This document shows positions 2,556 to 60,841 of a DNA stretch of 64,000 bases, piece by piece; positions within the stretch are counted from its first letter, which is position 1; each line of letters begins with the position of its first letter. Under the pieces are notes generated by a model. The model did not search any database. It saw only the letters and a list, made by a program, of their open reading frames with translations, and had not been told where the DNA came from. The DNA lies in assembly GCA_044370175.1 (NCBI GenBank), contig JBILVZ010000001.1, positions 43,579 through 107,578 of the forward strand. Reading direction: 5' to 3'. The stretch is from Methylococcaceae bacterium (lineage in GTDB: Bacteria; Patescibacteriota; Microgenomatia; UBA1400; PJMF01). A program made the position numbers and the translations under genes.

Positions 2556-3056
2556 TTACTCAGCAGCTTCCAAAAATCCCTGCACGATCAGTGCTTCTGC
2601 CTCACTATGTGCGATACCGCGGCTCTTGAGATAAAAAAGTTGTGCTTCAGGAATATGGCTGATGCTGGCTGCATGTGAACACTTGACGTCGTCCGTTAAA
2701 ATTTCGAGTTCGGGGACAGCTTCTGCCTTGGCTGTGTCAGAAAGCAGCAAAATGCGCTCAGTCAAAAAGGCATTGGTATCTGGACAGTGCTCTGCGACGA
2801 TGATTCGTCCAGTGAAACTGACCTGAGCATGGTCTCGGACTACACCTTTGAGGACGGTGTTGGAACGAGTGTGTGCTGCCTGGTGGTTAATAATAACAGT
2901 AATATTTTTCTGTTCTTTGCCTGCAGCTGCAAAGATACCACTGATCGTAGCTTGCGCCCCCTCACCAGTGAGCTGGATTTCATACACACCAGGCGCATCG
3001 ATCGTGATGGTGCGGTGTACATCTCGAGCTAGTGTGTAGGTTTTTTTATCTTCCAT
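2556..3056 (-). CDS. sufD: SufD-like Fe-S assembly protein (short form, C-terminal beta-helix region only)
   Basis: 166 aa, similar to the C-terminal part of SufB/SufD (..ILTDDVKCSHAASISHI..EAQLFYLKSRGI..EAEALIVQGF..). Start overlaps the sufB stop (TAATG), indicating translational coupling. Confidence 0.6.
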   Translation of the reverse strand: MEDKKTYTLARDVHRTITIDAPGVYEIQLTGEGAQATISGIFAAAGKEQKNITVIINHQAAHTRSNTVLKGVVRDHAQVSFTGRIIVAEHCPDTNAFLTERILLLSDTAKAEAVPELEILTDDVKCSHAASISHIPEAQLFYLKSRGIAHSEAEALIVQGFLEAAE

Positions 3057-5617
3057 TACCCAATACTCCCTTCCATTTCGTGATCAATTAAGCGATTCAT
3101 CTCTACTGCATACTCGAGTGGCAGTTTCTTGACCAAGTTATCAATAAAACCATGGACCACCATCTTGCGGGCATCTTCTTCACCTACACCACGACTCATC
3201 AAGTAAAATAGTTGGTCATCACCAATCTTGGAAACAGTGGCTTCGTGCTGAATGGCGACGCGGGAGTTAAAAATTCTGTCCACTGGGTAGGTGTCTGAGC
3301 GCGAAAAGTTATCAAGCAATAGCGCATCACAGATCACTGTATTTTGACTTTCTCTGGCATGTGGGCCAACATTGACCATACCGCGATAACTTGTCCGGCC
3401 GCCATCTTTGGAGATAGATTTTGAAATAATGGTAGAGCTGGTGTGTGGAGCCAAGTGAATGGCTTTAGAGCCAGTATCTTGATGTTGGCCAGCGCCAGCC
3501 AGTGCCATACTGAGAGTCTCGCCCACTGCCCCGCGTCCTGCCAAGATAAAGCCAGGGTACTTCATAGTCACTTTTGAACCCATATTGAAGTCGGTCCAGA
3601 TCATCTTACCTTCTTCTTCTACGTAAGCACGTTTGGTGACCAGGTTATAGACATTTTTGTACCAGTTCTGAATTGTGGTGTACTGGCACTGGGCGCCTTT
3701 TTTGACGTAGATTTCCACAACAGCGGAGTGGAGGGAACCACTGGAGAACTGCGGGGCTGTGCAGTTGTGGACCGCAACACCGCCTGCCACATAACTTTCA
3801 TCACCTTTGACGCTAAAGTTATATACAGGGATATTTTCAATTTTTTCACTCTCAATGGCAGCCACTGGAGCATATAAATAATATTGATCTAAATGATAGT
3901 ATGTCGCTCGTTTTTTACCCCACATCTGTGGCTGTACTGGCTGCTCAACCCATTTCCCAAACTCTATCATGTATTCACCACCAATCACCAAACAATACAT
4001 TGTCTGGCGGTTTTCGTGCGTGCGGTCCCGCACATTGAGTGAAGTTGCCACACCAAGTCTAGCTAGTAGCATTCGCGCCTGCTGTGCAAGAGTTTTTGAA
4101 ACCGTACAAATTCTGAAGACTTCCTTAAAACCATGAGCGTTTTGTTTTCTATAGTAACTACCATCACCCGCATACCACCCAATTATTAACTGTTTTTGCT
4201 TTTCAGGTGCTTCTTGCAGTACCCATTTAGGAAGTATTTTACTATTGGCATGAGTACCAAATTGTTCAAAGAAACGACATAGTTTGGTGGAGCGCACCAC
4301 AACAGACACACCATGATTTTTTTCATGAGCAACTTCATGAAAACGAGTTTCACTAAAGACCGTTGTAAGCAAATTTTTTACATCATCAATATACTCACGC
4401 TCATTTTCATTAAACGAGAAGTTCAAATAATGACCTGCACTGACACTACCCTCAGCTAGATAGTAGCCAATCAACCTAAATAATTCGGGGGTGCAAACTA
4501 TTGTAAAGTCTTCTTCTACCCAGCCGTGTCTACCTGCACCACGTAGAATTGGGAAAGTTCGGGATTCTTGCACGTCTATAGTCTTGTCTATCGGTATACA
4601 AAGATAATCACCTTTTTGCACTTCTTTAACTGGCAACCACTGAGTTTCCCATACTTTGTTACGCTCATTGTGTCGTTGTCGCTTTACCACCAAAAATGGA
4701 TGCTCTTCTGTAGCATTAATGTGTTCTGAAAGTTGACCTGTCACTTTCAGGTTATACAGTTGACCAGTGTATGGACGGACTTGAGTATGACCAACTTGTT
4801 GGTATTTGCCCGTATGTGTCAGAACGGTATCGCTAGTCTTAATATCTTCAATTGCTACTAATCCGCTCTCCGTCATAATTTTGGTACCAGCAATAAAGCA
4901 TCCTTCAATGTAGTGCACTTTCGCCCCTTCATCAACAATTATTAACGTCCGCTCAAACTGGCCAGCATTTTCCGAGTTGATTCTAAAGTAGGTCTGGAGT
5001 GGCATTTTGACATCCACACCTTTAGGAATATAGACAAATGACCCACCAGACCAAACAGCGGTGTTCAAGGCAGAAAATTTGTTGTCACCACTAGGGATGA
5101 CCTTGCCGAAGTATTCTTTGACCAAGTCTGGATATTGTTTGAGTCCATCATCCATGGAAAGGAAAACCACGCCATCTTTGGCAAAAACATCTTTAAGGGA
5201 GCCATAGACGACTTCGCTGTCATATTGAGCCTTCACGCCAGCCAAGACTGCTCGCTCAGCTTCAGGAATGCCCAGACGTTCAAATGTTTCTTTCACATCC
5301 TTGGGTACATCTTCCCAAGATTTGGATTGGTGATCTGTGGGTTTGAGGTAGTAGTGAATTTTTTCAAAGTTTATTTCGGAAAGATCGGCTCCCCACTCTG
5401 GCATTTTTTTGGCTAAAAACTGTTGGTATGCCGTCAGACGCAACTGTAGCATCCAATCTGGTTCTTCTTTAATGTGGGAAAGATGGCGGATAACTTGCTC
5501 GTTTAAACCAGGTTTGCTGATAAAGGCGTATTGATCTGTAGGGAAAGAATACCCATGTTCGTACTGCTCTGAGTTACTTTCAAAGGTGGTGGTGTGTTTT
5601 TGTGCGAAGCGGGCCAT
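3056..5617 (-). CDS. sufB: Fe-S cluster assembly protein SufB interrupted in frame by a 379-aa intein
   Basis: 853-aa ORF. Residues 1-239 and 619-853 together form a canonical SufB of about 474 aa (..GAKVHYIEG / CTAPQFSSGSLHSAVVEIY..FYLMSRGV..). Residues 240-618 are an insertion starting with Cys and ending His-Asn, with Cys at +1. Confidence 0.85.
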   Translation of the reverse strand: MARFAQKHTTTFESNSEQYEHGYSFPTDQYAFISKPGLNEQVIRHLSHIKEEPDWMLQLRLTAYQQFLAKKMPEWGADLSEINFEKIHYYLKPTDHQSKSWEDVPKDVKETFERLGIPEAERAVLAGVKAQYDSEVVYGSLKDVFAKDGVVFLSMDDGLKQYPDLVKEYFGKVIPSGDNKFSALNTAVWSGGSFVYIPKGVDVKMPLQTYFRINSENAGQFERTLIIVDEGAKVHYIEGCFIAGTKIMTESGLVAIEDIKTSDTVLTHTGKYQQVGHTQVRPYTGQLYNLKVTGQLSEHINATEEHPFLVVKRQRHNERNKVWETQWLPVKEVQKGDYLCIPIDKTIDVQESRTFPILRGAGRHGWVEEDFTIVCTPELFRLIGYYLAEGSVSAGHYLNFSFNENEREYIDDVKNLLTTVFSETRFHEVAHEKNHGVSVVVRSTKLCRFFEQFGTHANSKILPKWVLQEAPEKQKQLIIGWYAGDGSYYRKQNAHGFKEVFRICTVSKTLAQQARMLLARLGVATSLNVRDRTHENRQTMYCLVIGGEYMIEFGKWVEQPVQPQMWGKKRATYYHLDQYYLYAPVAAIESEKIENIPVYNFSVKGDESYVAGGVAVHNCTAPQFSSGSLHSAVVEIYVKKGAQCQYTTIQNWYKNVYNLVTKRAYVEEEGKMIWTDFNMGSKVTMKYPGFILAGRGAVGETLSMALAGAGQHQDTGSKAIHLAPHTSSTIISKSISKDGGRTSYRGMVNVGPHARESQNTVICDALLLDNFSRSDTYPVDRIFNSRVAIQHEATVSKIGDDQLFYLMSRGVGEEDARKMVVHGFIDNLVKKLPLEYAVEMNRLIDHEMEGSIG
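3764..4900 (-). mobile_element. intein (Hint domain plus LAGLIDADG homing endonuclease) inside sufB
   Basis: Codons verified on the DNA: Cys1 is tgc at 4898-4900 (minus strand). The C-terminal ..VAVHN ends at 3764-3766, followed by the tgc Cys codon of the CTAP extein. N-terminal block CFIAGTKIMTESG, C-terminal block VYNFSVKGDESYVAGGVAVHN. Two LAGLIDADG-like motifs (LIGYYLAEGSV and LIIGWYAGDGSY). Confidence 0.75.
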
Positions 5618-5717: not shown

Positions 5718-6314
5718 CTACTCCCCCACAATCTTCCTGATAAATCCTTCTTTTTCCCCAGCAAAACCAAAATCATAGTTCTCGAACTCATCCTTTGCAA
5801 TCCACTTAAAGTCACTGTGCTCCTCACTCAGCAGCACACTATCCTCTTTAAAATCGCCCTCAAGCTTTATCTCCCACCCCAAAATAATGGAAAATACTTG
5901 GGCTTGCCCATCAAAAAACGTACCAATGTGAACACACTTTTTTACGTCTTCGCGCTGCAGCTCAATCCCCGTCTCTTCAAATACTTCCCGCACCACGTCA
6001 TCTTTATGCATATCTCGCAGCAACCCCTCTTTTTCACCACTAATCGCACCAGGCATCACTCGCTGACCCTGTGCGTCCACCGGCCACTCACTGTTTCCCC
6101 CAGGCAGATCCCACTGATCTGGCCGTGAAGTGCTCTTGCTACTGCGTTTCAGGATCAACACTTTGCCGTTGTGCCATAAAGCAGCTTTTTGCAGTAACTT
6201 GACGTTTTGGGTGAGTTGGTGTGGGATGATGTCCATAAATTCCTTACTAAAAGAGTTGGTGTTAGTATACATTATGAGAGAGCAAAGCAATTCGTCGACA
6301 GAGACGTTCGCCAA
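5718..6314 (-). CDS. NUDIX hydrolase
   Basis: 198 aa. Nudix box variant with insertion: ..LPGGNSE..AISGEKEGLLRDMHKDDVVREVFEETGIE.. Lies between sufC and sufB on the same strand. Confidence 0.6.
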   Translation of the reverse strand: MANVSVDELLCSLIMYTNTNSFSKEFMDIIPHQLTQNVKLLQKAALWHNGKVLILKRSSKSTSRPDQWDLPGGNSEWPVDAQGQRVMPGAISGEKEGLLRDMHKDDVVREVFEETGIELQREDVKKCVHIGTFFDGQAQVFSIILGWEIKLEGDFKEDSVLLSEEHSDFKWIAKDEFENYDFGFAGEKEGFIRKIVGE

Positions 6315-6424: not shown

Positions 6425-7189
6425 CTATACTAACTCTTTGTATCCTGACTTCTCCAACTCCGTCACCAGCTCTTCACCTCCAGAGCGCACAATCTTTCCC
6501 TTCACCAACACATGCACAAAATCTGGCTTCAAATAGTCTAGTATCCGCTGATAGTGGGTAATCACCAGAACGCCGGTACCACACCGCTCCACAATCTTCA
6601 CCACATTACGTGCCACTTTTTTAATCGCATCAATATCCAGACCAGAATCAGTCTCATCCAAAATCGCAAATTTTGGCTCAAGCACCGCCATCTGCAAAAT
6701 TTCCAGCTGCTTTTTTTCTCCTCCACTAAAACCTTCATTTAACCCTCGGCTCAAAAATGACGGATCAATCTCCAATTCCTGAGCAATCTGCTGGAGATGC
6801 TTGCGAAACTCGATCGCCTTTTTAAACTGCTTTTCTTCTTGCTCAGCAAACCGTGCGTTGTGGGCATGTCGCAAAAAGTTCTGCACACTTACACCGGGCA
6901 CTTCCACAGGATATTGGAATGCTAAAAACAAACCTTTGTGCGCACGTTCATCTGGTGAAAGCTCGAGTAACTCTTCACCATCCAGTAGGATGCTCGTTTC
7001 AAATTTTTCTGGCCCCACAATTTCATAGGAAGGATGCCCCGCCAGAGTACTCGCCAAGGTACTTTTACCCGAGCCATTGGGTCCCATAATTGCGTGAACT
7101 TCACCACTTTTAACTTCCAGCGAAACGCCGTGCAAAATTTCTTGTTCGGTAATACGAGCGTGAAGATTTTTAATTTTGAAAGTTGCCAT
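6425..7189 (-). CDS. sufC: Fe-S cluster assembly ATPase SufC
   Basis: 254 aa. Walker A GPNGSGKST, ABC signature LSRGLNEGFSGGEKK, Walker B ILDETDSGLD. First gene of the suf cluster. Confidence 0.9.
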   Translation of the reverse strand: MATFKIKNLHARITEQEILHGVSLEVKSGEVHAIMGPNGSGKSTLASTLAGHPSYEIVGPEKFETSILLDGEELLELSPDERAHKGLFLAFQYPVEVPGVSVQNFLRHAHNARFAEQEEKQFKKAIEFRKHLQQIAQELEIDPSFLSRGLNEGFSGGEKKQLEILQMAVLEPKFAILDETDSGLDIDAIKKVARNVVKIVERCGTGVLVITHYQRILDYLKPDFVHVLVKGKIVRSGGEELVTELEKSGYKELV

Positions 7190-26263: not shown

Positions 26264-28096
26264 TTATTCTTTACGAACCCGAGCAGAAACAGAGGCTTCT
26301 AGAATTTTTCTTATTTCTTCGGTTTGAGGTGATTTTTTTCCAAAAATCACATATGCTTTCTGTTTGTTTATATACTCTATCGTGTCTATAGCTTGATAAT
26401 TTGACGGGATGTAACATGCAGAATACCCAGAATTTTCAAAATACTTTAGAACAATGTACTGTGGATCAAACTGCAGTATCTTCTCTTGCAAGAGGTTATC
26501 TTGACATAAGTCAGAAGTTTGCACAAAGATTCGATTGCCGATTTGAAACTCCTTTGTTTTTAAGAAATATTTGGTGCCCTCTGTTTTTCTAATAGGCAGC
26601 TGTAAGAAATTTTGCCCTGCGAGAAAGTAGGGATAGATAAAAGTGTAGTCGTTGTCTCCTACTACCATTCGTTCTTCAGCAGATTGTCTGTTAATCCATT
26701 CTCCCAATGCATAGTCGGGGTATGATCTAAAGTAGGGTTTGTAATGAGGATTAATATAAAAATACTTAACAACAAAGGGTAGAAAATTTACACTCGAAAA
26801 CAAGGCAACTCCACCTAGTGCAAAGAGCAGTTGCTGAGATGCTTTCAGTCGATTAAACCATGCAAATTGCGCAATTAGCATAGAGAAAGCGATCGCAGCA
26901 ACCATTTGCCAAAACGGAGTCATTATAACCCCACGCTGGAAGTTGGGAAAGTCATCGATAGTTAGTGCCGTGGGGATAGCACTACACAACAAACAAAATA
27001 CTAAAAATAATAAAATCTTGTAATTACCAGGATCTTTTACATAGGCAAAAGGAGAGATGAGTAGTCCAATTGCCAACACAAAACCTAGATACTCAAGATA
27101 GGTAATAGGCGCTACATCAACTATCGTATATCGAGCAGGTGTATCAAGCTGGCCGAGCATGATTGTGGGTGAGAAAAAACTAACATACTGCAAGAAAAAC
27201 TGGTCGAAGTTTACCGAGACTTTGTTGTATATTGCTCGAGTGACAAGTGGTGGCAACTGTGCTAAACCGGATGTCGTAATGTCTTCAAAAATAGCTGCCT
27301 GTACTGACTGACTTTGAATAACTGTTGTTTCTTTGAACCGACCTTGCGCATATGGAGTCTGCAAAAATGTCAAAAAAGGAAAAATAAAATACGCCACTAA
27401 AACGCTCACAGAACCAATAATAACTCCCTTGCCAATACGATTATTTTGTAGGTAGGCAAATGCCAGCACACCAATACCAATTGGGATAATGAGTAATCGT
27501 GAAGTGAAGTATGTTAGATAACAAACAAGCGAAGTAATATACGCACCCGCAAATAATGTAAGCTGTGAAAACTGGAAACGCTGCTTGCCACTACTCCTAG
27601 CAGCAGAAGCAACTGCTTCGTAGAGAATAATGATAAAAACAAGCAGAAAGAACGTATCAATAATCACCGTTGAAGAAGCACGTGCCATACTAATATTCCA
27701 GGGAGAAAGTGCAAAGAGCAAACTAAAGATGAGTACTACAAGACTTTTTCGCGTCACTCGATAGAGAAAAAAAGCAGCTGCAAGGAGGGTGAGTAGTGAA
27801 AAAGTTACCGTAGTTAGGCGAAATGCCGCTGTATGTAAACCAAATAGAGAAATAAACGGCACCGCCCAGTACGAATGCGCCGCTGAGACGTGTTCTCCCC
27901 ACATATCAACCGTCAGTGGGAACTTTTCGTTGTATAGGTTTGTGCCTTGTTCAGCTAAAAGAAACGCATTGTATGCAAACCAGACTTCATCATGGTGCAA
28001 ACCTGAAGGAATATTTTGTAACTGCAACACTCGAACTAATAGGGCTACCCCGATGATGCATGAAAAAATAATTTTATACAAAGCAGTAATTTTCAT
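26264..28096 (-). CDS. GT39/GT83-type (PMT/ArnT-like) membrane glycosyltransferase
   Basis: 610 aa, polytopic. N-terminal loop ..HHDEVWFAYNAFLLAEQGTNLYNEKFPL.. carries the conserved acidic DE-type motif. Paralog of 16676..18481. Confidence 0.65.
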   Translation of the reverse strand: MKITALYKIIFSCIIGVALLVRVLQLQNIPSGLHHDEVWFAYNAFLLAEQGTNLYNEKFPLTVDMWGEHVSAAHSYWAVPFISLFGLHTAAFRLTTVTFSLLTLLAAAFFLYRVTRKSLVVLIFSLLFALSPWNISMARASSTVIIDTFFLLVFIIILYEAVASAARSSGKQRFQFSQLTLFAGAYITSLVCYLTYFTSRLLIIPIGIGVLAFAYLQNNRIGKGVIIGSVSVLVAYFIFPFLTFLQTPYAQGRFKETTVIQSQSVQAAIFEDITTSGLAQLPPLVTRAIYNKVSVNFDQFFLQYVSFFSPTIMLGQLDTPARYTIVDVAPITYLEYLGFVLAIGLLISPFAYVKDPGNYKILLFLVFCLLCSAIPTALTIDDFPNFQRGVIMTPFWQMVAAIAFSMLIAQFAWFNRLKASQQLLFALGGVALFSSVNFLPFVVKYFYINPHYKPYFRSYPDYALGEWINRQSAEERMVVGDNDYTFIYPYFLAGQNFLQLPIRKTEGTKYFLKTKEFQIGNRIFVQTSDLCQDNLLQEKILQFDPQYIVLKYFENSGYSACYIPSNYQAIDTIEYINKQKAYVIFGKKSPQTEEIRKILEASVSARVRKE

Positions 28097-44405: not shown

Positions 44406-45062
44406 TTGCTTTGGAGCATCTATATAGTACGTAACATGAAAAAAACTAAAGAAGATTTGACCACTATTGAAAGTCTTGGAAACCATATCGCTCGAGCAGT
44501 TATTGTTGCCCCAGAGCTACACCCCAAAACAAACCAAAAACATGGTGATGTAGTGGTTTTTACTCGTCGCCCATATTGGTCAAAGATAGCACCGGGGGCT
44601 ATTGCCTTGCCTGGAGGAAAAATTGAGTTTGGGGAGAATACTACTGCAGGTGACTTTACAGATATTCTTCCTGCTGAAGTCCAGAATGATCCATTCTATA
44701 GCATCACACTTGAGCAAATGATTCAGGCTGGACTCCACGCTGTAGTGCGTGAGTCTGCAGAAGAACTGGGACTCCTCCTTTTGGCTAAACAGTTGCGGTT
44801 TGTTGACAAATCAACGAATACTGCAGGATGGACAACGTATTGCTATCTAGTTCAATTACTAGAAAAACCTATACTTACAGTAGAATCAGATAGTGCAGGG
44901 ACACTTTGGATGGATACAGATACTATTTTAAACAAGCGACCAAAATTATTATCAGGACATCTTGCCGTGACGCGCAGAGCACTTCGTATACGTAGGAAAA
45001 TAATTCAACCAGATCTAACTTTTACTAATGTTGCGGGGCCGGGAGTCGAACCCGGCCTGTGA
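44406..45062 (+). CDS. NUDIX-like hydrolase with atypical, split Nudix box
   Basis: 218 aa. ..LPGGKIEFGEN.. separated by about 40 aa from ..RESAEELGL.. The 3' end of the ORF runs 32 nt into the minus-strand tRNA gene, so the real stop or extent is uncertain. Confidence 0.4.
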   Translation: MLWSIYIVRNMKKTKEDLTTIESLGNHIARAVIVAPELHPKTNQKHGDVVVFTRRPYWSKIAPGAIALPGGKIEFGENTTAGDFTDILPAEVQNDPFYSITLEQMIQAGLHAVVRESAEELGLLLLAKQLRFVDKSTNTAGWTTYCYLVQLLEKPILTVESDSAGTLWMDTDTILNKRPKLLSGHLAVTRRALRIRRKIIQPDLTFTNVAGPGVEPGL

Positions 45063-45099
45063 GATTATGAGCCTCACGTGCACCGTACACTACCCCGCG
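45031..45099 (-). tRNA. tRNA-Met (anticodon CAT), initiator-like, compact D-arm
   Basis: Minus-strand sequence CGCGGGG-TA-GTGTACGGTGCAC-G-TGAGG-CTCATAA-TCTCA-CAGG-CCGGG-TTCGACT-CCCGG-CCCCGCA-A. Anticodon loop CUCAUAA. C1xA72 mismatch and 5' CGCGGGG / 3' CCCCGCAA ends like bacterial tRNA-fMet. Only 69 nt because of a very short D-loop and a 4-nt variable loop. CCA not encoded. Confidence 0.6.
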
Positions 45100-45265: not shown

Positions 45266-45339
45266 GCCAGGGTAGCTCAGTTGGTTAGAGCATGGGATTC
45301 ATAAACCCAAGGTCGTGAGTTCGAATCTCACCTCTGGTA
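45266..45339 (+). tRNA. tRNA with CAT anticodon (elongator Met or Ile2-lysidine type)
   Basis: GCCAGGG-TA-GCTC-AGTTGGTTA-GAGC-A-TGGGA-TTCATAA-ACCCA-AGGTC-GTGAG-TTCGAAT-CTCAC-CTCTGGT-A. Canonical cloverleaf with GG in the D-loop and TTCGAAT in the T-loop. A31/A39 mismatch closes the anticodon loop. CCA not encoded. Confidence 0.7.
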
Positions 45340-45343
45340 CACT

Positions 45344-54739: not shown

Positions 54740-57700
54740 TTAATTAACTTTTGCTTGTGCATATTGTATGCGATAAGCCGAGTCATTTCCATTAAAAAGT
54801 GCTGGGTCAAAAATATTTATTGCAGCGAATGCCCCATTGATTCTCTCCGCAGACAATTGACCATTTACTGGCGTAAGCAACCCACTCACCTGAGGATTTC
54901 CTAATGCTCGGGCTAAGATCTCGTTTTGTTGAGCCACGGAAAGTTCTACAGATCTACCAGCTATGTTTACTGTCACCGGAGTCATATCACCCTCTATAAC
55001 ATGCGCTAACACAACTGCAGCTGGAGAAAGGCCAAGCCGAGCATCTGACACATCAATTGTAGTAGCTTCTTGTGGAGTAATTGGACTTTCTTGTGAATGC
55101 AGTGCATCCTGAATCCCGGCTTCAAGTTTTACTTGGGCCTGATGACCTAGCACCGCCAGCTTTAATTCATTATCAGGTTGTAATTTTTGTAATGCTTGCT
55201 CATATGGCTCTGTCATTACATGCTCGGCAAAATAATGAATCACATTTTTCCCTGCTTCATTGTTTCCCAACCGTTCTAGAATCTGAGGGTATTGTTGCCG
55301 TAATTCGCCATAGAGCGAATCAACATTTGGGTGAGCTTGTGCAAGATCTTCAGTTGCAGTAAGAGCAGTGGCAGTCTCCTTTTGTGCCGCATCCTGTGTG
55401 GCTACTGCTGTCGTAGTTTCTCCAGTAGTCGGCTGTTCACTTGGTTGTATCTCTGCTTGAGTAGCAGTTGCTGGTAAAACAGTACTTGCTTGATCATGGG
55501 TATTAGTTCTATCAAACAACCCCTCAAGCACGTCCGCATGATTTCGGGCTATTGTCTCTGCCGACCACTCAGTGCCAAGACCCCCGCCTCCCACAGCTGG
55601 GAGTGCATTGAAGCCAGTGCGTAAATCTGTGGCCAACTGATCGGCAGCAGTTGGACTACTGTAGGTAGCATAGAGTAACTTTGCCATAGCTTCAGCTTGA
55701 GCAGGTGAAGGCACAACCCCTGCTATTTCTGTAGTATTAGTCATAAACTGCATCATCTCATCATATGAAGCAAAGGTATCAGCACTGACAACTTGATCCC
55801 CATTTGAAAGATCCTGATATGGTTGATTACGTGCCTCTGCTATCGCTAGGTTGGTAGCTTTTGTCCAATCTTTAATGCCGTCTGCAACTTCAGCTACACT
55901 GACTTGTCTATGTCCTTCTGGAAGTGGTAAGCTATTCAGCTCAGTCACTACTTGGGTACTTGCCTCCTCTGCCATATGCCATATATGTGGTTCATTAAAA
56001 GTTTCTGGTTTGAGTGTTACTACTTCAGCAGGTTCAGTGAGAGCAGTTGACTCAACAGTTGGAGCTGTTTCAATAGGTTGCGCAGAGACGTTGGGAATAT
56101 CAAAAGTAGTAATAGCTCGCTGCCATAATCTCTGTGCCATGGTTGTGGCGGTTTCAGGCAATTTTTCTGTATCAATTTGTATGTTGTCCAGATCAATACT
56201 CTGTGGTTGAGATGGCTTTACATCTATAACTGGAGTATTTGACTGTGCCTCTGAGGCTGTCACAGTCTCTCTCCCATTGAAGTCATCATACGTCGTCGAT
56301 CTGACTGTATTTGCAGCAGTCACAGTAGTATCTTTGCCTGTACCAAACAGAGTTCTTACATTTTCTCCTACCAAAGAATCTTCTGAAAATGGTGGTTGCT
56401 CACCTGGTCGCAGGTCAGTTATTGGCTTGAGGTAAAAATCAGTTGTAATACTACGTGAATCTGCCTTTGCTGCCAGTGTTTCAGCAGCATGACCAGATGC
56501 TTCTAAAGCAAATCCTTGTGCATCTATTACTAGATGTGACTTTCCATTGGCATCAGGTTGTACTGTCAAGTGTATGGCATAGTCACCATTTTCTAGACCA
56601 AGGTCTGCGCTACCTGGTTCTTGATGGCCAATAAGCCACACCCCATTAGAATCGTTGGGATCACGAATTACTGAAGTACTTTCAAAATCAGCAAATGTGT
56701 GTGGGACCTCAACCATTTGACCATTGAGAGACACGTGATCTCCCCAGTTGACAACGTTTTCAGTAGGTTGGATAGCCGCAGAGTGTCCAACATTTAACGC
56801 ACTACTTTCAGCACGACTGACTGTGTGAAAACTCTCGTCGCCAGGGAATTCCCCATGATGGTTAGGATCAACTCTATAATTACGTGGAGGAGGAACAATC
56901 TCCCCAGATGGATTAGCTGCTTCTCCATGATGTTTATCTGTTGTTACTACAGCTATGCCACTGGTATGCGTATTCACATGAGTTGGTTCTACTCCTTCAG
57001 GGGTGGGAGTAGGCAACGGACTTTGTGGTTGTTCAAAGGATTCGGCAGTAAGGGTACTGAGTGGCGTAGGGACCTGACTGGTACTTTCTGGAGAAGGTGT
57101 AGCCACAGTCGTTGCGTCTTGTGTAAGTTGCTCTGTCTGAACTGGACTGTTGAGAGTATCAATTCCAGCAACCCCCAAATTAAATGCAAGTGAACCAAAT
57201 GCATATCCCAGCGAGAACTTAGCGACCTCAGCAACGCCTAATCTCCCTGCTGATAGCTTGTTTATTACATCTTCCAACTTATCAGATCCTCGGAAAAATG
57301 CTCGATAGACTTGCTCTGTTACGTTGGGATCAGTATTGTAATAATTGGCCAGCCTTCCCCGGAGATAGGCTGCCCCACCGAACGATGCTGCAGTAACCAA
57401 ACTGCTCACCATTTGAATTGTCATATTTATATTGGCAATATCAGCTTCAACACCAACCGACCGCAAACCCAGCGCTACTGCATTGACCGCCACACCTGAG
57501 CCTATACCCGCATACAGTGACTTTCCTGCTGTCAGAGCTGTTAACATTTTTTTCCACTTAGGAATACGTTGCTCTTCAGCTAAAAATCCTTCCAGTACTC
57601 TTGCTTGATCTTCACTGAGCGCTTCTTGACTCAGTTTTACGTTAATTTCTTGATCTGCAGTTATTGTTGAGCTATATCCATCATCGTTGGTAAATAGTGT

Positions 57701-58606
57701 GCCATCAAGTCGAGTAATCAGTGCTGCTGATTCAAGTGTTTGTGGGTCAATCTTGCCTAGTACAAGCCTCAGCTTGATCAGTGAACATCGCAGTTCTAGC
57801 CCTTGCTCATACACCGGGATCTTATCAGTGTCCCTATTAATCGAAATCATTCGATTTAAAGTGTCCATGACTTCCCAGGTGAGATCATACTGTAGTACAT
57901 TGGATTGCCTCAAGGTGAGGATATGCTTTTTAAATTCTGCAGCAGATTGTAGTGCCAGCTCTCGTATGAGACGATCTGCGGTACGCATCTGTTCAGCCGA
58001 GCCAAGTGGGGTGACATGAACAAGGCGATCAAAAGTATTTTCATTACCCTGTTCATCTTCAGGGAGTGTTAGTCCCAATCTTTTCCGCAAACCAATATAG
58101 AGAAGTAACATTTGGTACGTTTGTCGTGCTTTTTCCTCTAAGTCAGCGTGTAACGTATTGTGCGTGGGTGCGGAATCTGCAGCAGTTGCTAACGAGTCTG
58201 TTGATAGATTTTCCTTAATGTCTTGCAGGCTCCGCATCTCTGCACGTAGTCGACTACCTAGATCTGATAAACCTATAAACTTTAGTTCATCAGTCCTGAG
58301 TGTAGAATCCTGTGTATCGTAGGAGTTTTGCCATGCATCTACAACAGTTCTAATATGGCTATTCTCCTGTCTAGAACTTTCTTGGGCTGGTTGATGTTCT
58401 GATGCCGTGGTTTGTAGAGCGTTTACTACTTCAGTATCTAGAGAGGACTCTTTTTCTTGAGATTTCGTTGTCCAGATTTTATCAAATCCTTCAAAAAATT
58501 CCATATGTCCTTTTGTAGTTTTTGTGGTATTACTTTTGCTCGGCTGTATACACAATATACTATCACTATAGCAAAGAGAGCTGCCATAGTGCAAATTACA
58601 ATGCAC
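54740..58606 (-). CDS. very large hypothetical multi-domain protein (1288 aa)
   Basis: Continuous ORF. About 350 aa of N-terminal hydrophilic region, then three hydrophobic segments (..GIGSGVAVNAVALGLRSV.., ..MTIQMVSSLVTAASFGGAAYL.., ..LGYAFGSLAFNLGVAGI..). A Pro/Thr/Ser-rich linker (..TPSPESTSQVPTPLSTL..PLPTPTPEG..) and about 700 aa of further domains follow. No N-terminal signal peptide. No known motif recognised. Confidence 0.5.
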   Translation of the reverse strand: MHCNLHYGSSLCYSDSILCIQPSKSNTTKTTKGHMEFFEGFDKIWTTKSQEKESSLDTEVVNALQTTASEHQPAQESSRQENSHIRTVVDAWQNSYDTQDSTLRTDELKFIGLSDLGSRLRAEMRSLQDIKENLSTDSLATAADSAPTHNTLHADLEEKARQTYQMLLLYIGLRKRLGLTLPEDEQGNENTFDRLVHVTPLGSAEQMRTADRLIRELALQSAAEFKKHILTLRQSNVLQYDLTWEVMDTLNRMISINRDTDKIPVYEQGLELRCSLIKLRLVLGKIDPQTLESAALITRLDGTLFTNDDGYSSTITADQEINVKLSQEALSEDQARVLEGFLAEEQRIPKWKKMLTALTAGKSLYAGIGSGVAVNAVALGLRSVGVEADIANINMTIQMVSSLVTAASFGGAAYLRGRLANYYNTDPNVTEQVYRAFFRGSDKLEDVINKLSAGRLGVAEVAKFSLGYAFGSLAFNLGVAGIDTLNSPVQTEQLTQDATTVATPSPESTSQVPTPLSTLTAESFEQPQSPLPTPTPEGVEPTHVNTHTSGIAVVTTDKHHGEAANPSGEIVPPPRNYRVDPNHHGEFPGDESFHTVSRAESSALNVGHSAAIQPTENVVNWGDHVSLNGQMVEVPHTFADFESTSVIRDPNDSNGVWLIGHQEPGSADLGLENGDYAIHLTVQPDANGKSHLVIDAQGFALEASGHAAETLAAKADSRSITTDFYLKPITDLRPGEQPPFSEDSLVGENVRTLFGTGKDTTVTAANTVRSTTYDDFNGRETVTASEAQSNTPVIDVKPSQPQSIDLDNIQIDTEKLPETATTMAQRLWQRAITTFDIPNVSAQPIETAPTVESTALTEPAEVVTLKPETFNEPHIWHMAEEASTQVVTELNSLPLPEGHRQVSVAEVADGIKDWTKATNLAIAEARNQPYQDLSNGDQVVSADTFASYDEMMQFMTNTTEIAGVVPSPAQAEAMAKLLYATYSSPTAADQLATDLRTGFNALPAVGGGGLGTEWSAETIARNHADVLEGLFDRTNTHDQASTVLPATATQAEIQPSEQPTTGETTTAVATQDAAQKETATALTATEDLAQAHPNVDSLYGELRQQYPQILERLGNNEAGKNVIHYFAEHVMTEPYEQALQKLQPDNELKLAVLGHQAQVKLEAGIQDALHSQESPITPQEATTIDVSDARLGLSPAAVVLAHVIEGDMTPVTVNIAGRSVELSVAQQNEILARALGNPQVSGLLTPVNGQLSAERINGAFAAINIFDPALFNGNDSAYRIQYAQAKVN

Positions 58607-58636: not shown

Positions 58637-60841
58637 CTATATCGGACAGGCACCACTCTCACACTTCAAGTGTTCATAGTCGATGTCTTCAAGCAACTCC
58701 TCTTCATTTTCGATCTCATTGAGGACGCGCATAAACTCACTGATAGTGACTGGTTGTTCTGGTTGGTACTCATAGGCAGTACTATCTTGTTGTGGCATAA
58801 CTGAGCAACACTTAATGAGTCCTTGGTACTTGCGCACCATCTCAGCAAACTCCTCATACTTCACCCGTTTTGGATCATACTTGAGGGTGTAGGAGACTTG
58901 GTTGCCCGTGTCTTCTAGTGGTTTGCCATTCTCATTAACCCCGACAATCCAGTATTTTTCAAGCAACATTAGCCATTTGTACTGCTCTTCTGGAGTGGCT
59001 TCACCTGCAGTCACGAGCTCACCATTCATACCCAGACGGCAAATGAGTGGCTGGGTGGGAAAGCCCACCACGGTAGAACCTTGATAACTCCTCAGCTCTT
59101 TGACTGGATACCCTTTTTTCTTGTACTTCTCCACCTGTGGATCGTCACTGCGATACTGCACCCAGCGGATGTACTCACGCATAGATGGTAAGTGGGCACC
59201 TTCCGTCAGAGCAAACAGCTTAGAGATCGTCCCCGAAGGTTTGATGGTCGTGTTGGTGTGCGGCACATTCACCTTCAAGAGCTTGGAGTACTTTTCTGCC
59301 TCATCAACGACGGCTCGTTTAAAACGGGACAGCGTCATCCAGAAGTCTTTGGTTTTTTCTTCATCGATCAGGTCGCGAAAGGCATAGCCAAACGTATTCC
59401 AGGCAAATTCGTGAATCCCCGTCATACCCACACCAATCCGGTTGGTGCGCTTGACCTCGCGGTTGTACAAACTATCCATGAAACTGTTGACCCGGATCAA
59501 TGCCCGAGTAGTAGCTCGGAAAGCCTCTTCAGCGTCGTTAATGGTAGGACAGTAGTAGGGTACGACATCAGAGATCACACAGTAGCCTCCCAGCATGTTG
59601 AGTGAAATCTCACCACAGGGGTTGGGGATCTGCGTGTAGACTTTGGCGGCTGCATTACGAGCAATACGAGACAACATTTTTTCTGTACGAGCTAATGGCT
59701 TGTATTTTTTACTCTCGGCATACTTGCCATCAGCATAGTTATCAAAACCTTCGTCGTTCTGCACTAGGCGGTGTTGATTGACAAAACCTGGCTCACCGGT
59801 GCCATCTTCATAGGCTGCTTTGAGAATTGTCTCCAAGACTTTGCGGGCATGATTGGTGCGCTGCTTCCAGAACTTGTCGTCAACAGCCACTGAGTTGTTG
59901 GCACTCCACAAGAAACCGCCACGTTTGATATTGATGAAGTCAAAAATTTCAGGATCATTCCATGCTTTAGTAGCAATCCGTGCACTGCGGCGAGCACCAC
60001 CCACCAGCACACACTCAGCCAAGTAGTGATCGACAAACATCGCTTGCTTCCAAGGAGACATCCCAGCACCTTTGATGGTGGCCACTTTTTCAATTGCATT
60101 CATCAGTGGCTTTGGACCAGAAGAAGGGCGGTTCTGCATACCACGGATTGGTGCTCCTTTAGGGCGAACTTTAGAAAAGTCCAAAATGAGGATACCGTCT
60201 TTGTGTTTTTTCTCAAAAGCCATCATTTCCATCATTTCAATGGCTTGCGACCAGCCTTCTCGGCTGTCTGGTACTTCAAACCAAGTGACACTTTCACTCT
60301 CGCCATATTTGTGGCGTGCATCGCGGACACTTTCATCAAAACCCCAGACGAAATCAGCGTGTGAGTCATCAATTACGCAGCGAACATTTGGCATGTTGTC
60401 CCAGTTGACTACACACAGATCATCGTCATAAGGCCTGCCTACTCCTGAGCCATTCATCAGTAAGTAAAACAGGACGTATGATGCAGTAGCAGTAGAACAG
60501 TTGGTAAAGACCTCCATGTTGCGCTCTGCTTGAGAGATATCCCCATGTTGGAGGTGGCGACCAGACATCAGAATCGAGCCATTACTAATATGTTTTTTCA
60601 AAATGGCATAGTCTTCTTGGCGGTGTTTGTCAAACTTCTTATTTTTTGAGTACCCCAGCAAACTAGTATTTCCCAGAGCCACACGTTCGGCCACTTCTTC
60701 CCAAGTTTCCCAGCGCTCATGACCACTTTTAGCATCGATGACACGGCGCAAATAGGTACGGCGCGCCACAGCCATTCCCATCCCACCATCGAGTTTACGA
60801 TTGATAAAGGTCATTTTCTTTTTTGGCAGACTTGGTGACAT
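58637..60841 (-). CDS. nrdJ: class II (adenosylcobalamin-dependent) ribonucleotide reductase, NrdJ-like
   Basis: 734-aa monomeric RNR-sized protein. N-terminal ATP-cone-like region. Finger-loop catalytic motif ..IPNPCGEISL.. C-terminal redox Cys pair ..CESGACPI. No glycyl-radical motif. Confidence 0.7.
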   Translation of the reverse strand: MSPSLPKKKMTFINRKLDGGMGMAVARRTYLRRVIDAKSGHERWETWEEVAERVALGNTSLLGYSKNKKFDKHRQEDYAILKKHISNGSILMSGRHLQHGDISQAERNMEVFTNCSTATASYVLFYLLMNGSGVGRPYDDDLCVVNWDNMPNVRCVIDDSHADFVWGFDESVRDARHKYGESESVTWFEVPDSREGWSQAIEMMEMMAFEKKHKDGILILDFSKVRPKGAPIRGMQNRPSSGPKPLMNAIEKVATIKGAGMSPWKQAMFVDHYLAECVLVGGARRSARIATKAWNDPEIFDFINIKRGGFLWSANNSVAVDDKFWKQRTNHARKVLETILKAAYEDGTGEPGFVNQHRLVQNDEGFDNYADGKYAESKKYKPLARTEKMLSRIARNAAAKVYTQIPNPCGEISLNMLGGYCVISDVVPYYCPTINDAEEAFRATTRALIRVNSFMDSLYNREVKRTNRIGVGMTGIHEFAWNTFGYAFRDLIDEEKTKDFWMTLSRFKRAVVDEAEKYSKLLKVNVPHTNTTIKPSGTISKLFALTEGAHLPSMREYIRWVQYRSDDPQVEKYKKKGYPVKELRSYQGSTVVGFPTQPLICRLGMNGELVTAGEATPEEQYKWLMLLEKYWIVGVNENGKPLEDTGNQVSYTLKYDPKRVKYEEFAEMVRKYQGLIKCCSVMPQQDSTAYEYQPEQPVTISEFMRVLNEIENEEELLEDIDYEHLKCESGACPI

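Follow-up and report, generated by a model that had tools for sequence, protein, structure and literature searches.

A probable full-size class 1 intein with a nested LAGLIDADG endonuclease domain in the sufB gene of a Patescibacteria bacterium

Why should a sufB gene encode a protein of 853 amino acids (aa) when the removal of a single internal segment leaves a SufB of 474 aa? The question is raised by an open reading frame (ORF) on the minus strand (3056–5617) of the 64,000-nucleotide (nt) stretch of contig JBILVZ010000001.1 that was analysed here and that we call, at its full length, the window. We consider it very likely that the internal segment, 379 aa encoded at 3764–4900 of the same strand, is a full-size canonical class 1 intein with a nested LAGLIDADG homing endonuclease, inserted in a Patescibacteria sufB at the site that is also occupied in Mycobacterium tuberculosis (Mtu). 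An earlier sequence-only reading of this DNA had proposed an intein with an endonuclease at this place, and the ORF length, the insert and its coordinates, and all of the residues that it quoted proved correct on translation. Its interpretation holds for the intein, the site, and the endonuclease, but not for the word “mini-intein” in its title. Because a mini-intein by definition has no endonuclease domain and measures only about 130–200 aa, the term is a misnomer for a 379-aa insert with a complete LAGLIDADG domain, which the text of that reading itself described as a full intein. All positions given below refer to the window, and all features lie on its minus strand unless stated otherwise.

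The SufB precursor and its splicing domain

The sufB frame extends over 2562 nt (853 codons and a stop) with no interruption, and its product matches the NCBIfam SufB equivalog profile TIGR01980 with 685.6 bits (cutoff 346.4), in two stretches that lie on either side of the insert. Pfam likewise places SufBD_N and SUFBD_core (E=3e-79) on the precursor. The gene is part of a suf operon (in the order sufC, a Nudix-like gene, sufB, a sufD-like gene, a gene for 196 aa, sufS, and sufU), and at its stop codon it shares 1 nt with the start of the sufD-like gene that follows. Both the score, which exceeds the equivalog cutoff, and the operon context identify the gene as sufB.

Translation divides the precursor into three parts. 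The N-extein (239 aa; 4901–5617) ends with ...GAKVHYIEG, including His-5 and Gly-1, and matches Escherichia coli SufB through residue 253. It is followed by the insert (precursor residues 240–618; CFIAGTKIMT...YVAGGVAVHN) and by the C-extein (235 aa; 3059–3763), which starts with CTAPQFSSG and has its Cys+1 codon at 3761–3763. When the insert is removed in silico, the resulting 474-aa protein aligns with E. coli SufB (PDB 5awf) at E=4e-114 and is gapless across VHYIEG-CTAP (VSYIEGCSAP in E. coli), as expected from the earlier proposal that excision would recreate HYIEGCTAP. Counted along the alignment with 5awf, Cys+1 pairs with E. coli SufB Cys254, the residue that accepts sulfur from SufE (PMC5571166).

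The insert itself carries the splicing blocks of an intein, which we placed by aligning it with 18 homologous inteins. Block A (4862–4900; intein residues 1–13; C1 FIAGTKIMTESG) begins with Cys1, the first nucleophile, and block B (4688–4720; INATEEHPFLV) contains the T64-E-E-H67 motif. Near the other end, block F (3779–3829; intein residues 358–374; PVYNFSVKGDESYVAGG) is followed directly by block G (3764–3778; VAVHN), with His378 and the terminal Asn379. Profile searches agree with this anatomy: Pfam assigns Hint_2 (4e-7), Intein_splicing (1e-7), and weaker Hint families to the insert, and Hint_2 reaches 32.4 bits with the intein alone (cutoff 28.4). NCBIfam reports intein_Nterm, intein_Cterm (TIGR01443; 22.3 bits with the precursor and 18.8 bits with the intein alone, cutoff 15.6), and the intein parts of several archaeal and bacterial intein-containing proteins. 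In a sequence search of the PDB, residues 2–71 matched a bacterial intein-like HINT domain (2lwy, E=1e-5).

The boundary residues singled out by the sequence-only reading are also those that its homologs keep. Among the 80 homologous inteins in which both ends could be aligned, Cys1 is present in 79 and Cys+1 in 78, and the intein terminates in His-Asn in 67 and in Ser-Asn in 12. In an alignment of 43 intein sequences, no variation is seen at N379, D246, K221, or G151, and conservation reaches at least 90% at each of T64, H67, and E150. Overall, the insert combines gapless removal from its host protein, Cys1 and Cys+1, block B, a terminal His-Asn, and a HINT fold, which together define a class 1 intein.

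The unusual length of the ORF, taken alone, could also be a sign of a dead insertion or of an assembly chimera, in which case sufB would be a pseudogene or misassembled. We regard this as extremely improbable, given that the 2562-nt frame is open throughout, every catalytic residue is intact, and the suf operon is preserved down to the stop/start overlap with the next gene. A second sufB is not present among the listed ORFs of the window, with the profile scan covering the ten longest other ORFs and the suf neighbors. Moreover, an identical precursor is found on 13 contigs, of which four are shown here, three from metagenomes of the Joint Genome Institute (JGI) and one from a Logan run. The source data sets are JGI 3300043099, 3300035666, and 3300042289 and the run SRR35365871. 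One of the four (L002) equals the window over all 8562 nt compared, and the other three (L001, L003, and L004) are 100% identical to it from position 1821 to at least 8917. With independent assemblies from JGI and Logan both containing this DNA, the gene is not an assembly artefact.

Given which residues are conserved, and by analogy with the Mtu SufB intein, which has been characterised, splicing would follow the class 1 route. Translation would yield the 853-aa precursor, in which Cys1 would attack the carbonyl of Gly-1 in an N-S acyl shift assisted by Thr64 and His67 of block B, and the N-extein would then pass to Cys+1 by trans-thioesterification. Cyclisation of Asn379, assisted by His378, would free the intein, and a final S-N shift would create the peptide bond of ...HYIEG-CTAP... 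in the 474-aa SufB. Because Cys+1 aligns with the persulfide-receiving Cys254 of E. coli, no activity is expected of the precursor before splicing, and with an inactive precursor the host would have to depend on splicing for SUF function.

The endonuclease domain

Between its splicing blocks, the intein contains a LAGLIDADG core (3941–4495; intein residues ~136–320) composed of two alpha-beta-beta-alpha-beta-beta-alpha halves, as delimited by DSSP on the structure model described below. The first LAGLIDADG motif (4442–4483; LFRLIGYYLAEGSV; intein residues 140–153) includes the string LIGYYLAEGS with the acidic residue E150, and the second (4154–4189; LIIGWYAGDGSY; intein residues 238–249) includes LIIGWYAGDGS with D246. 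Pfam LAGLIDADG_3 matches the insert in two stretches (E-values of 4e-18 and 1e-17, both far below what chance would give), and residues 138–286 retrieve the endonuclease of PI-PkoII in a PDB sequence search. Profile matches therefore exist for both the Hint and the LAGLIDADG domains that had been read from the letters, and the two LAGLIDADG-like motifs can be located within the intein.

An AlphaFold2 model of the intein, built from the 43-sequence alignment, has a mean predicted local distance difference test score (pLDDT) of 95.7 and a predicted template modeling score (pTM) of 0.92. According to DSSP, it consists of a beta-rich splicing domain split by two alpha-beta-beta-alpha-beta-beta-alpha units at residues 138–317. 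In a Foldseek search against the PDB, the best matches to the whole model were endonuclease-bearing inteins, with TliVMA at the top (E=4e-20, template modeling (TM) score 0.71) and PhoVMA, PI-SceI, PI-PkoII, and PI-PfuI among the further matches, and the middle domain matched the free-standing endonucleases I-DmoI and I-Tsp061I (TMt 0.66–0.75). The model thus predicts a monomeric LAGLIDADG fold with two motifs, in which both acidic residues are kept.

The solved bifunctional inteins TliVMA and PhoVMA (7qsu, 7qss, and 7qst), PI-SceI (1vde), PI-PkoII (2cw7), and PI-PfuI (1dq3) share this architecture of a HINT domain with a double-motif LAGLIDADG endonuclease. They match the model with Foldseek E-values of 4e-20 to 6e-13 and TM scores of 0.6–0.7, while their sequence identity to the window intein is only 12–18%. 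Their host proteins also differ (VMA ATPase, DNA polymerase, or ribonucleotide reductase [RNR]), and three of them (PI-SceI, PI-PkoII, and PI-PfuI) exceed the window intein in size.

With the two metal-binding acidic residues and the invariant lysine (K221) all kept, endonuclease activity of the window intein is plausible. If active, the endonuclease, with E150 and D246 as its acidic residues, would cut an intein-less sufB across the GAAGG|TGCAC junction, and repair of the break would copy the intein in. A putative intein-less target junction of this kind is, for example, GAAGGGGCGAAAGTGCACTACATTGAAGGA|TGCACAGCCCCGCAGTTCTCCAGTGGTTCC.

Insertion site, occupancy, and relatives of the intein

The Mtu SufB precursor consists of an N-extein of 252 aa, an endonuclease-containing intein of 359 aa, and a C-extein of 235 aa, and it has Cys1, Cys+1, a block-B His67, a terminal His358-Asn359, and a conserved N-extein His-5 (PMC8891592). 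For a comparison at the sequence level, an Mtu intein sequence served as the query against a protein database, and only the database proteins returned by this query are used as evidence; four of them (P0121–P0124) are 83–88% identical to the query, and another (P0143) is 99% identical over the part covered. The junctions of the actinobacterial SufB proteins P0143, P0123, and P0121 read ...YVHYVEG|CLPAGEL... at the upstream end of the intein and ...HN|CTAPIYKSDSLH... (CTAPIYK) at the downstream end. The insertion point in the window, HY(I/V)EG|CTAP, is thus the one used by the intein of M. tuberculosis SufB.

In addition to the insertion point, the window precursor shares with that of Mtu a C-extein of 235 aa, Cys1, Cys+1, the terminal His-Asn, the block-B His67, His-5, and Gly-1. 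A LAGLIDADG endonuclease, a similar size (359 vs. 379 aa), and YN(L/F) in block F are likewise common to the window intein and the Mtu-type SufB inteins. Unlike these, however, the window intein resides in a Patescibacteria bacterium rather than in actinomycetes, and in an end-to-end alignment with the intein of P0123, which runs from Cys1 through the final His-Asn, it is only 26% identical (E=3e-30). As judged by this comparison, the two types occupy the same site and are homologous but distant.

Other insertion sites in SufB were also encountered among the database proteins. The SufB of a Mycobacterium sp. (P0162) has its intein at AAQYE|SEVVYH and an empty VEG|CTAP site. This may be the differing site that has been cited for M. 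leprae and related species (PMC8891592), referred to elsewhere as “SufB-b in M. leprae” (PMC5050341). A metagenome-assembled genome (MAG) from Deltaproteobacteria (P0117) encodes a second SufB intein at NLG|SKLTMKYP.

To see how often the site is occupied, we scanned SufB loci from one genome per species; a SufB frame was found in 78 of the 80 loci. The loci nearest to the window by extein identity (69–84%) come from MAGs labelled as Woesebacteria, Pacebacteria, Microgenomates group, and Patescibacteria group, and they share the operon layout of the window, including a short sufD (150–187 aa). From this shared layout, the loci are orthologous, and the host of the window is most likely a Microgenomates-group Patescibacteria bacterium. 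Eleven syntenic relatives (L006–L016) read HY(I/V/L)EG|C(T/S)AP with no insert. They provide the intein-minus alleles that the sequence-only reading had suggested looking for in related genomes, and they show, as does E. coli 5awf, the clean gap of 379 aa at EG|CTAP. The site holds an intein in two of the 78 loci. One of these, L005, has an intein of 379 aa at the same site, with 59% identity to that of the window and 77% identity in the exteins, and the other, L017, belongs to Solirubrobacterales and has a mini-intein.

The spans of the database matches gave the appearance of a wider occurrence, with the nearest relatives carrying mini-inteins and many actinomycetes carrying full ones, but this was ruled out by translating the loci. 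It is also worth noting that several third-party annotation (TPA) MAGs labelled “uncultured Pseudomonadales bacterium” (L005, L008, L010, L011, L014, and L015) have SufB proteins and suf synteny resembling those of Microgenomates/Patescibacteria, so that these labels look wrong.

The empty junctions of the eleven relatives are identical to the reconstructed junction of the window at 36–43 of 60 nt, and at 15–18 of the central 24 nt, a level to be expected where conserved codons make up the target. Homing by cutting and repair is consistent with the scattered occurrence of the intein in these syntenic relatives.

The shared position directly before a functional cysteine also invites the question of whether the intein acts as a redox switch, such that under oxidative or nitrosative stress a disulfide between Cys1 and Cys+1 would form and stall splicing. 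Such a switch would add to the explanation by a homing intein and is compatible with it. In the Mtu SufB intein, according to Topilina et al. (2015) as cited in PMC8529194, H2O2 inhibits splicing via a Cys1-Cys+1 disulfide. The window intein has the same site and the same pair of cysteines, and its Cys+1 aligns with the sulfur-acceptor cysteine of E. coli SufB (PMC5571166). By contrast, identity to the Mtu type is only 26%, the N-extein His-38 of Mtu is lacking, and nothing specific in the window data speaks for a redox role; in addition, since eleven close relatives do without the intein, any such role would be dispensable. We therefore think a redox function in this host unlikely.

Closer relatives of the window intein than the Mtu type are found in metagenomes. 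SufB inteins in the set P0001–P0016 lie at the same site and are 37–61% identical to it over their full length; the closest among the matches listed, which did not include the identical precursor, is P0001, with 61% full-length identity, and a fragment (P0003) is 73% identical over 63% of the query. Those with labelled sources were assigned to Diapherotrites, Nanoarchaeota, and Thermoflexales (37–49% identical). These uncharacterised inteins share the site, domain layout, and blocks of the window intein (DESYVAGGVAVHN|CTAP) and form a clade of their own with it. True mini-inteins of 151–189 aa also occur at this SufB site (P0089, P0105, P0106, P0108, P0110, and L017); they keep the splicing blocks and are without the segment that corresponds approximately to residues 113–335 of the window intein.

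Inteins of a related kind are present in other iron-sulfur (Fe-S) proteins. In NuoI-like ferredoxin-domain proteins of ~530 aa with two [4Fe-4S] clusters (P0020–P0099), some of them from hosts labelled Bathyarchaeia, the inteins adjoin the third Cys of CxxCxxCxxxCP and are 30–36% identical over 100% of the window intein. They are closer to the window intein than the Mtu-type SufB inteins are, share with it the blocks LIGYYLAEG, WRGDG, and DESYVAGN..HN|C, and likewise sit directly before a functional Fe-S cysteine. However, they occupy another target site in another host protein and group in a clade of their own (100% bootstrap). An intein in a NifU_N protein (P0111) is 27% identical to that of the window. 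Insertion at functional cysteines of Fe-S proteins is thus a repeated feature of the family.

In a neighbor-joining tree, the inteins of the window, L005, and P0001 cluster together (100% bootstrap), and an equally supported split separates the actinobacterial SufB and NifU_N inteins from the window-type SufB inteins, the ferredoxin inteins, and one intein in a methyltransferase-domain protein (PF00145). The deeper nodes on the side of the window have bootstrap values of 4–36% and are unsupported, and the ferredoxin inteins entered the tree ~35–55 residues too long at the N-terminus; for both reasons, the tree is only indicative. Taken as such, and read alongside the pairwise identities, it points to the presence of two old intein lineages at this one SufB site. 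It is conceivable, though in our view doubtful, that SufB, NuoI-like, and NifU_N inteins belong to one lineage specialised on codons of Fe-S cysteines, which would have moved between these host proteins and across the candidate phyla radiation (CPR), DPANN, Bathyarchaeia, and Chloroflexota. The SufB site would in that case have been colonised by this lineage and, independently, by the old actinobacterial one, and the Cys1/Cys+1 pair may make SufB maturation in this host conditional on redox state.

Together, the empty, full-size, and endonuclease-less mini alleles make up the classical picture of a homing cycle at a single site. Several observations nevertheless weigh against an intein that is spliced and mobile in the proposed host. 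Splicing and endonuclease activity are predictions from residue conservation only, and the host is assigned only by the likeness of its SufB, and of the gene order, to those of labelled MAGs. In block F, Asn360 and Glu367 stand at positions where many inteins carry Asp and His, although Asn at the former position is also seen in the actinobacterial, Mtu-type SufB inteins (VYNLDV), which are characterised and do splice. In the N-extein, the window has Asp (GVDVKMP) at the position of the Mtu His-38 (GVHVDIP; counted by hand), and this histidine has been proposed to assist N-cleavage in Mtu. No intein-minus allele was found within the population, as represented by the four retrieved contigs, so that the patchy distribution could reflect loss rather than ongoing homing. 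Base composition was tried as a sign of recent horizontal arrival and is uninformative: G+C content at third codon positions (GC3) is 0.33 in the intein, which is at the mean (0.366 +/- 0.055) calculated from 31 further long ORFs in the window and gives no sign of recent arrival. The GC3 outlier is the exteins (0.48), not the intein.

Some of these observations would suit an intein that splices but is immobile, in which the endonuclease no longer cuts, inheritance is vertical, and the patchy distribution results from precise losses or old invasions. The mini-inteins at the same site indicate that endonuclease decay does occur in this family, the GC3 of the intein matches the average of the window ORFs, and the four retrieved contigs contain neither variation nor an empty allele. 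On the other hand, both acidic LAGLIDADG residues and K221 are intact and invariant or nearly so across the family, and the very confident model shows the endonuclease with both of its alpha-beta-beta-alpha-beta-beta-alpha units complete. The inteins of the window and L005 have diverged further than the exteins, and yet both have remained at exactly 379 aa. We consider immobility a possibility, but a rather unlikely one, and favor an intein whose endonuclease may still be functional. As for selection on the gene, the four contigs are 100% identical across sufB and offered no polymorphism for a strain-level test or for a test of the ratio of nonsynonymous to synonymous substitutions (dN/dS).

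As judged from these comparisons, the window intein adds a rather divergent new representative to a known class of element and leaves the current understanding of inteins unchanged. With it, the ultra-small Patescibacteria would join actinomycetes and Ferroplasma as hosts of SufB inteins; a literature search found no report of SufB inteins in CPR, Patescibacteria, or DPANN. Its position directly before the cysteine aligned with the sulfur acceptor of E. coli makes it a natural test case for whether splicing gates Fe-S assembly outside mycobacteria. New Cys1/Cys+1 splicing modules could be derived from the 379-aa intein, which is modeled as well folded, and from its mini relatives, and the window intein might be used as a LAGLIDADG scaffold with a known and highly conserved target.

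The suf operon and the rest of the window

Upstream of sufB, the operon contains sufC, which encodes an ABC ATPase (6425–7189), and the Nudix-like gene (5718–6314); a small gene between sufC and sufB is also present in several relatives. Downstream, the short sufD-like gene (2556–3056; 166 aa) comprises only the C-terminal part of SUFBD_core. The short form (150–187 aa) is also found in Microgenomates relatives, and the Pseudonocardia gene encodes 396 aa. Next are a 196-aa ORF without a Pfam match (1872–2462), sufS for a cysteine desulfurase (500–1831; Aminotran_5), and sufU for a sulfur acceptor or scaffold of the NifU_N type (48–443; NifU_N). The contigs L001, L003, and L004 differ from the window at 90–319 positions, all of them in the sufS/sufU region (1–1820), with up to 89 differences per 250 nt, a pattern that suggests replacement of these alleles through recombination in strains that are identical elsewhere.

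None of the ten longest other ORFs in the window (PNPase, class II RNR, DnaK, FtsH, GroEL, IF-2, and others) matches Hint or LAGLIDADG profiles. RNRs are frequent intein hosts, and the class II (B12-dependent) RNR of the window (58637–60841) is among the ORFs without such a match. Two further ORFs, of 1288 aa (54740–58606) and 610 aa (26264–28096), have no Pfam family at E<=1e-5. Rfam and tRNA scans of the 64 kb found no RNA genes beyond two for tRNA-Met (CAT), which are divergently oriented (45030–45099 on the minus strand and 45266–45340 on the plus strand) and lie ~170 nt apart.

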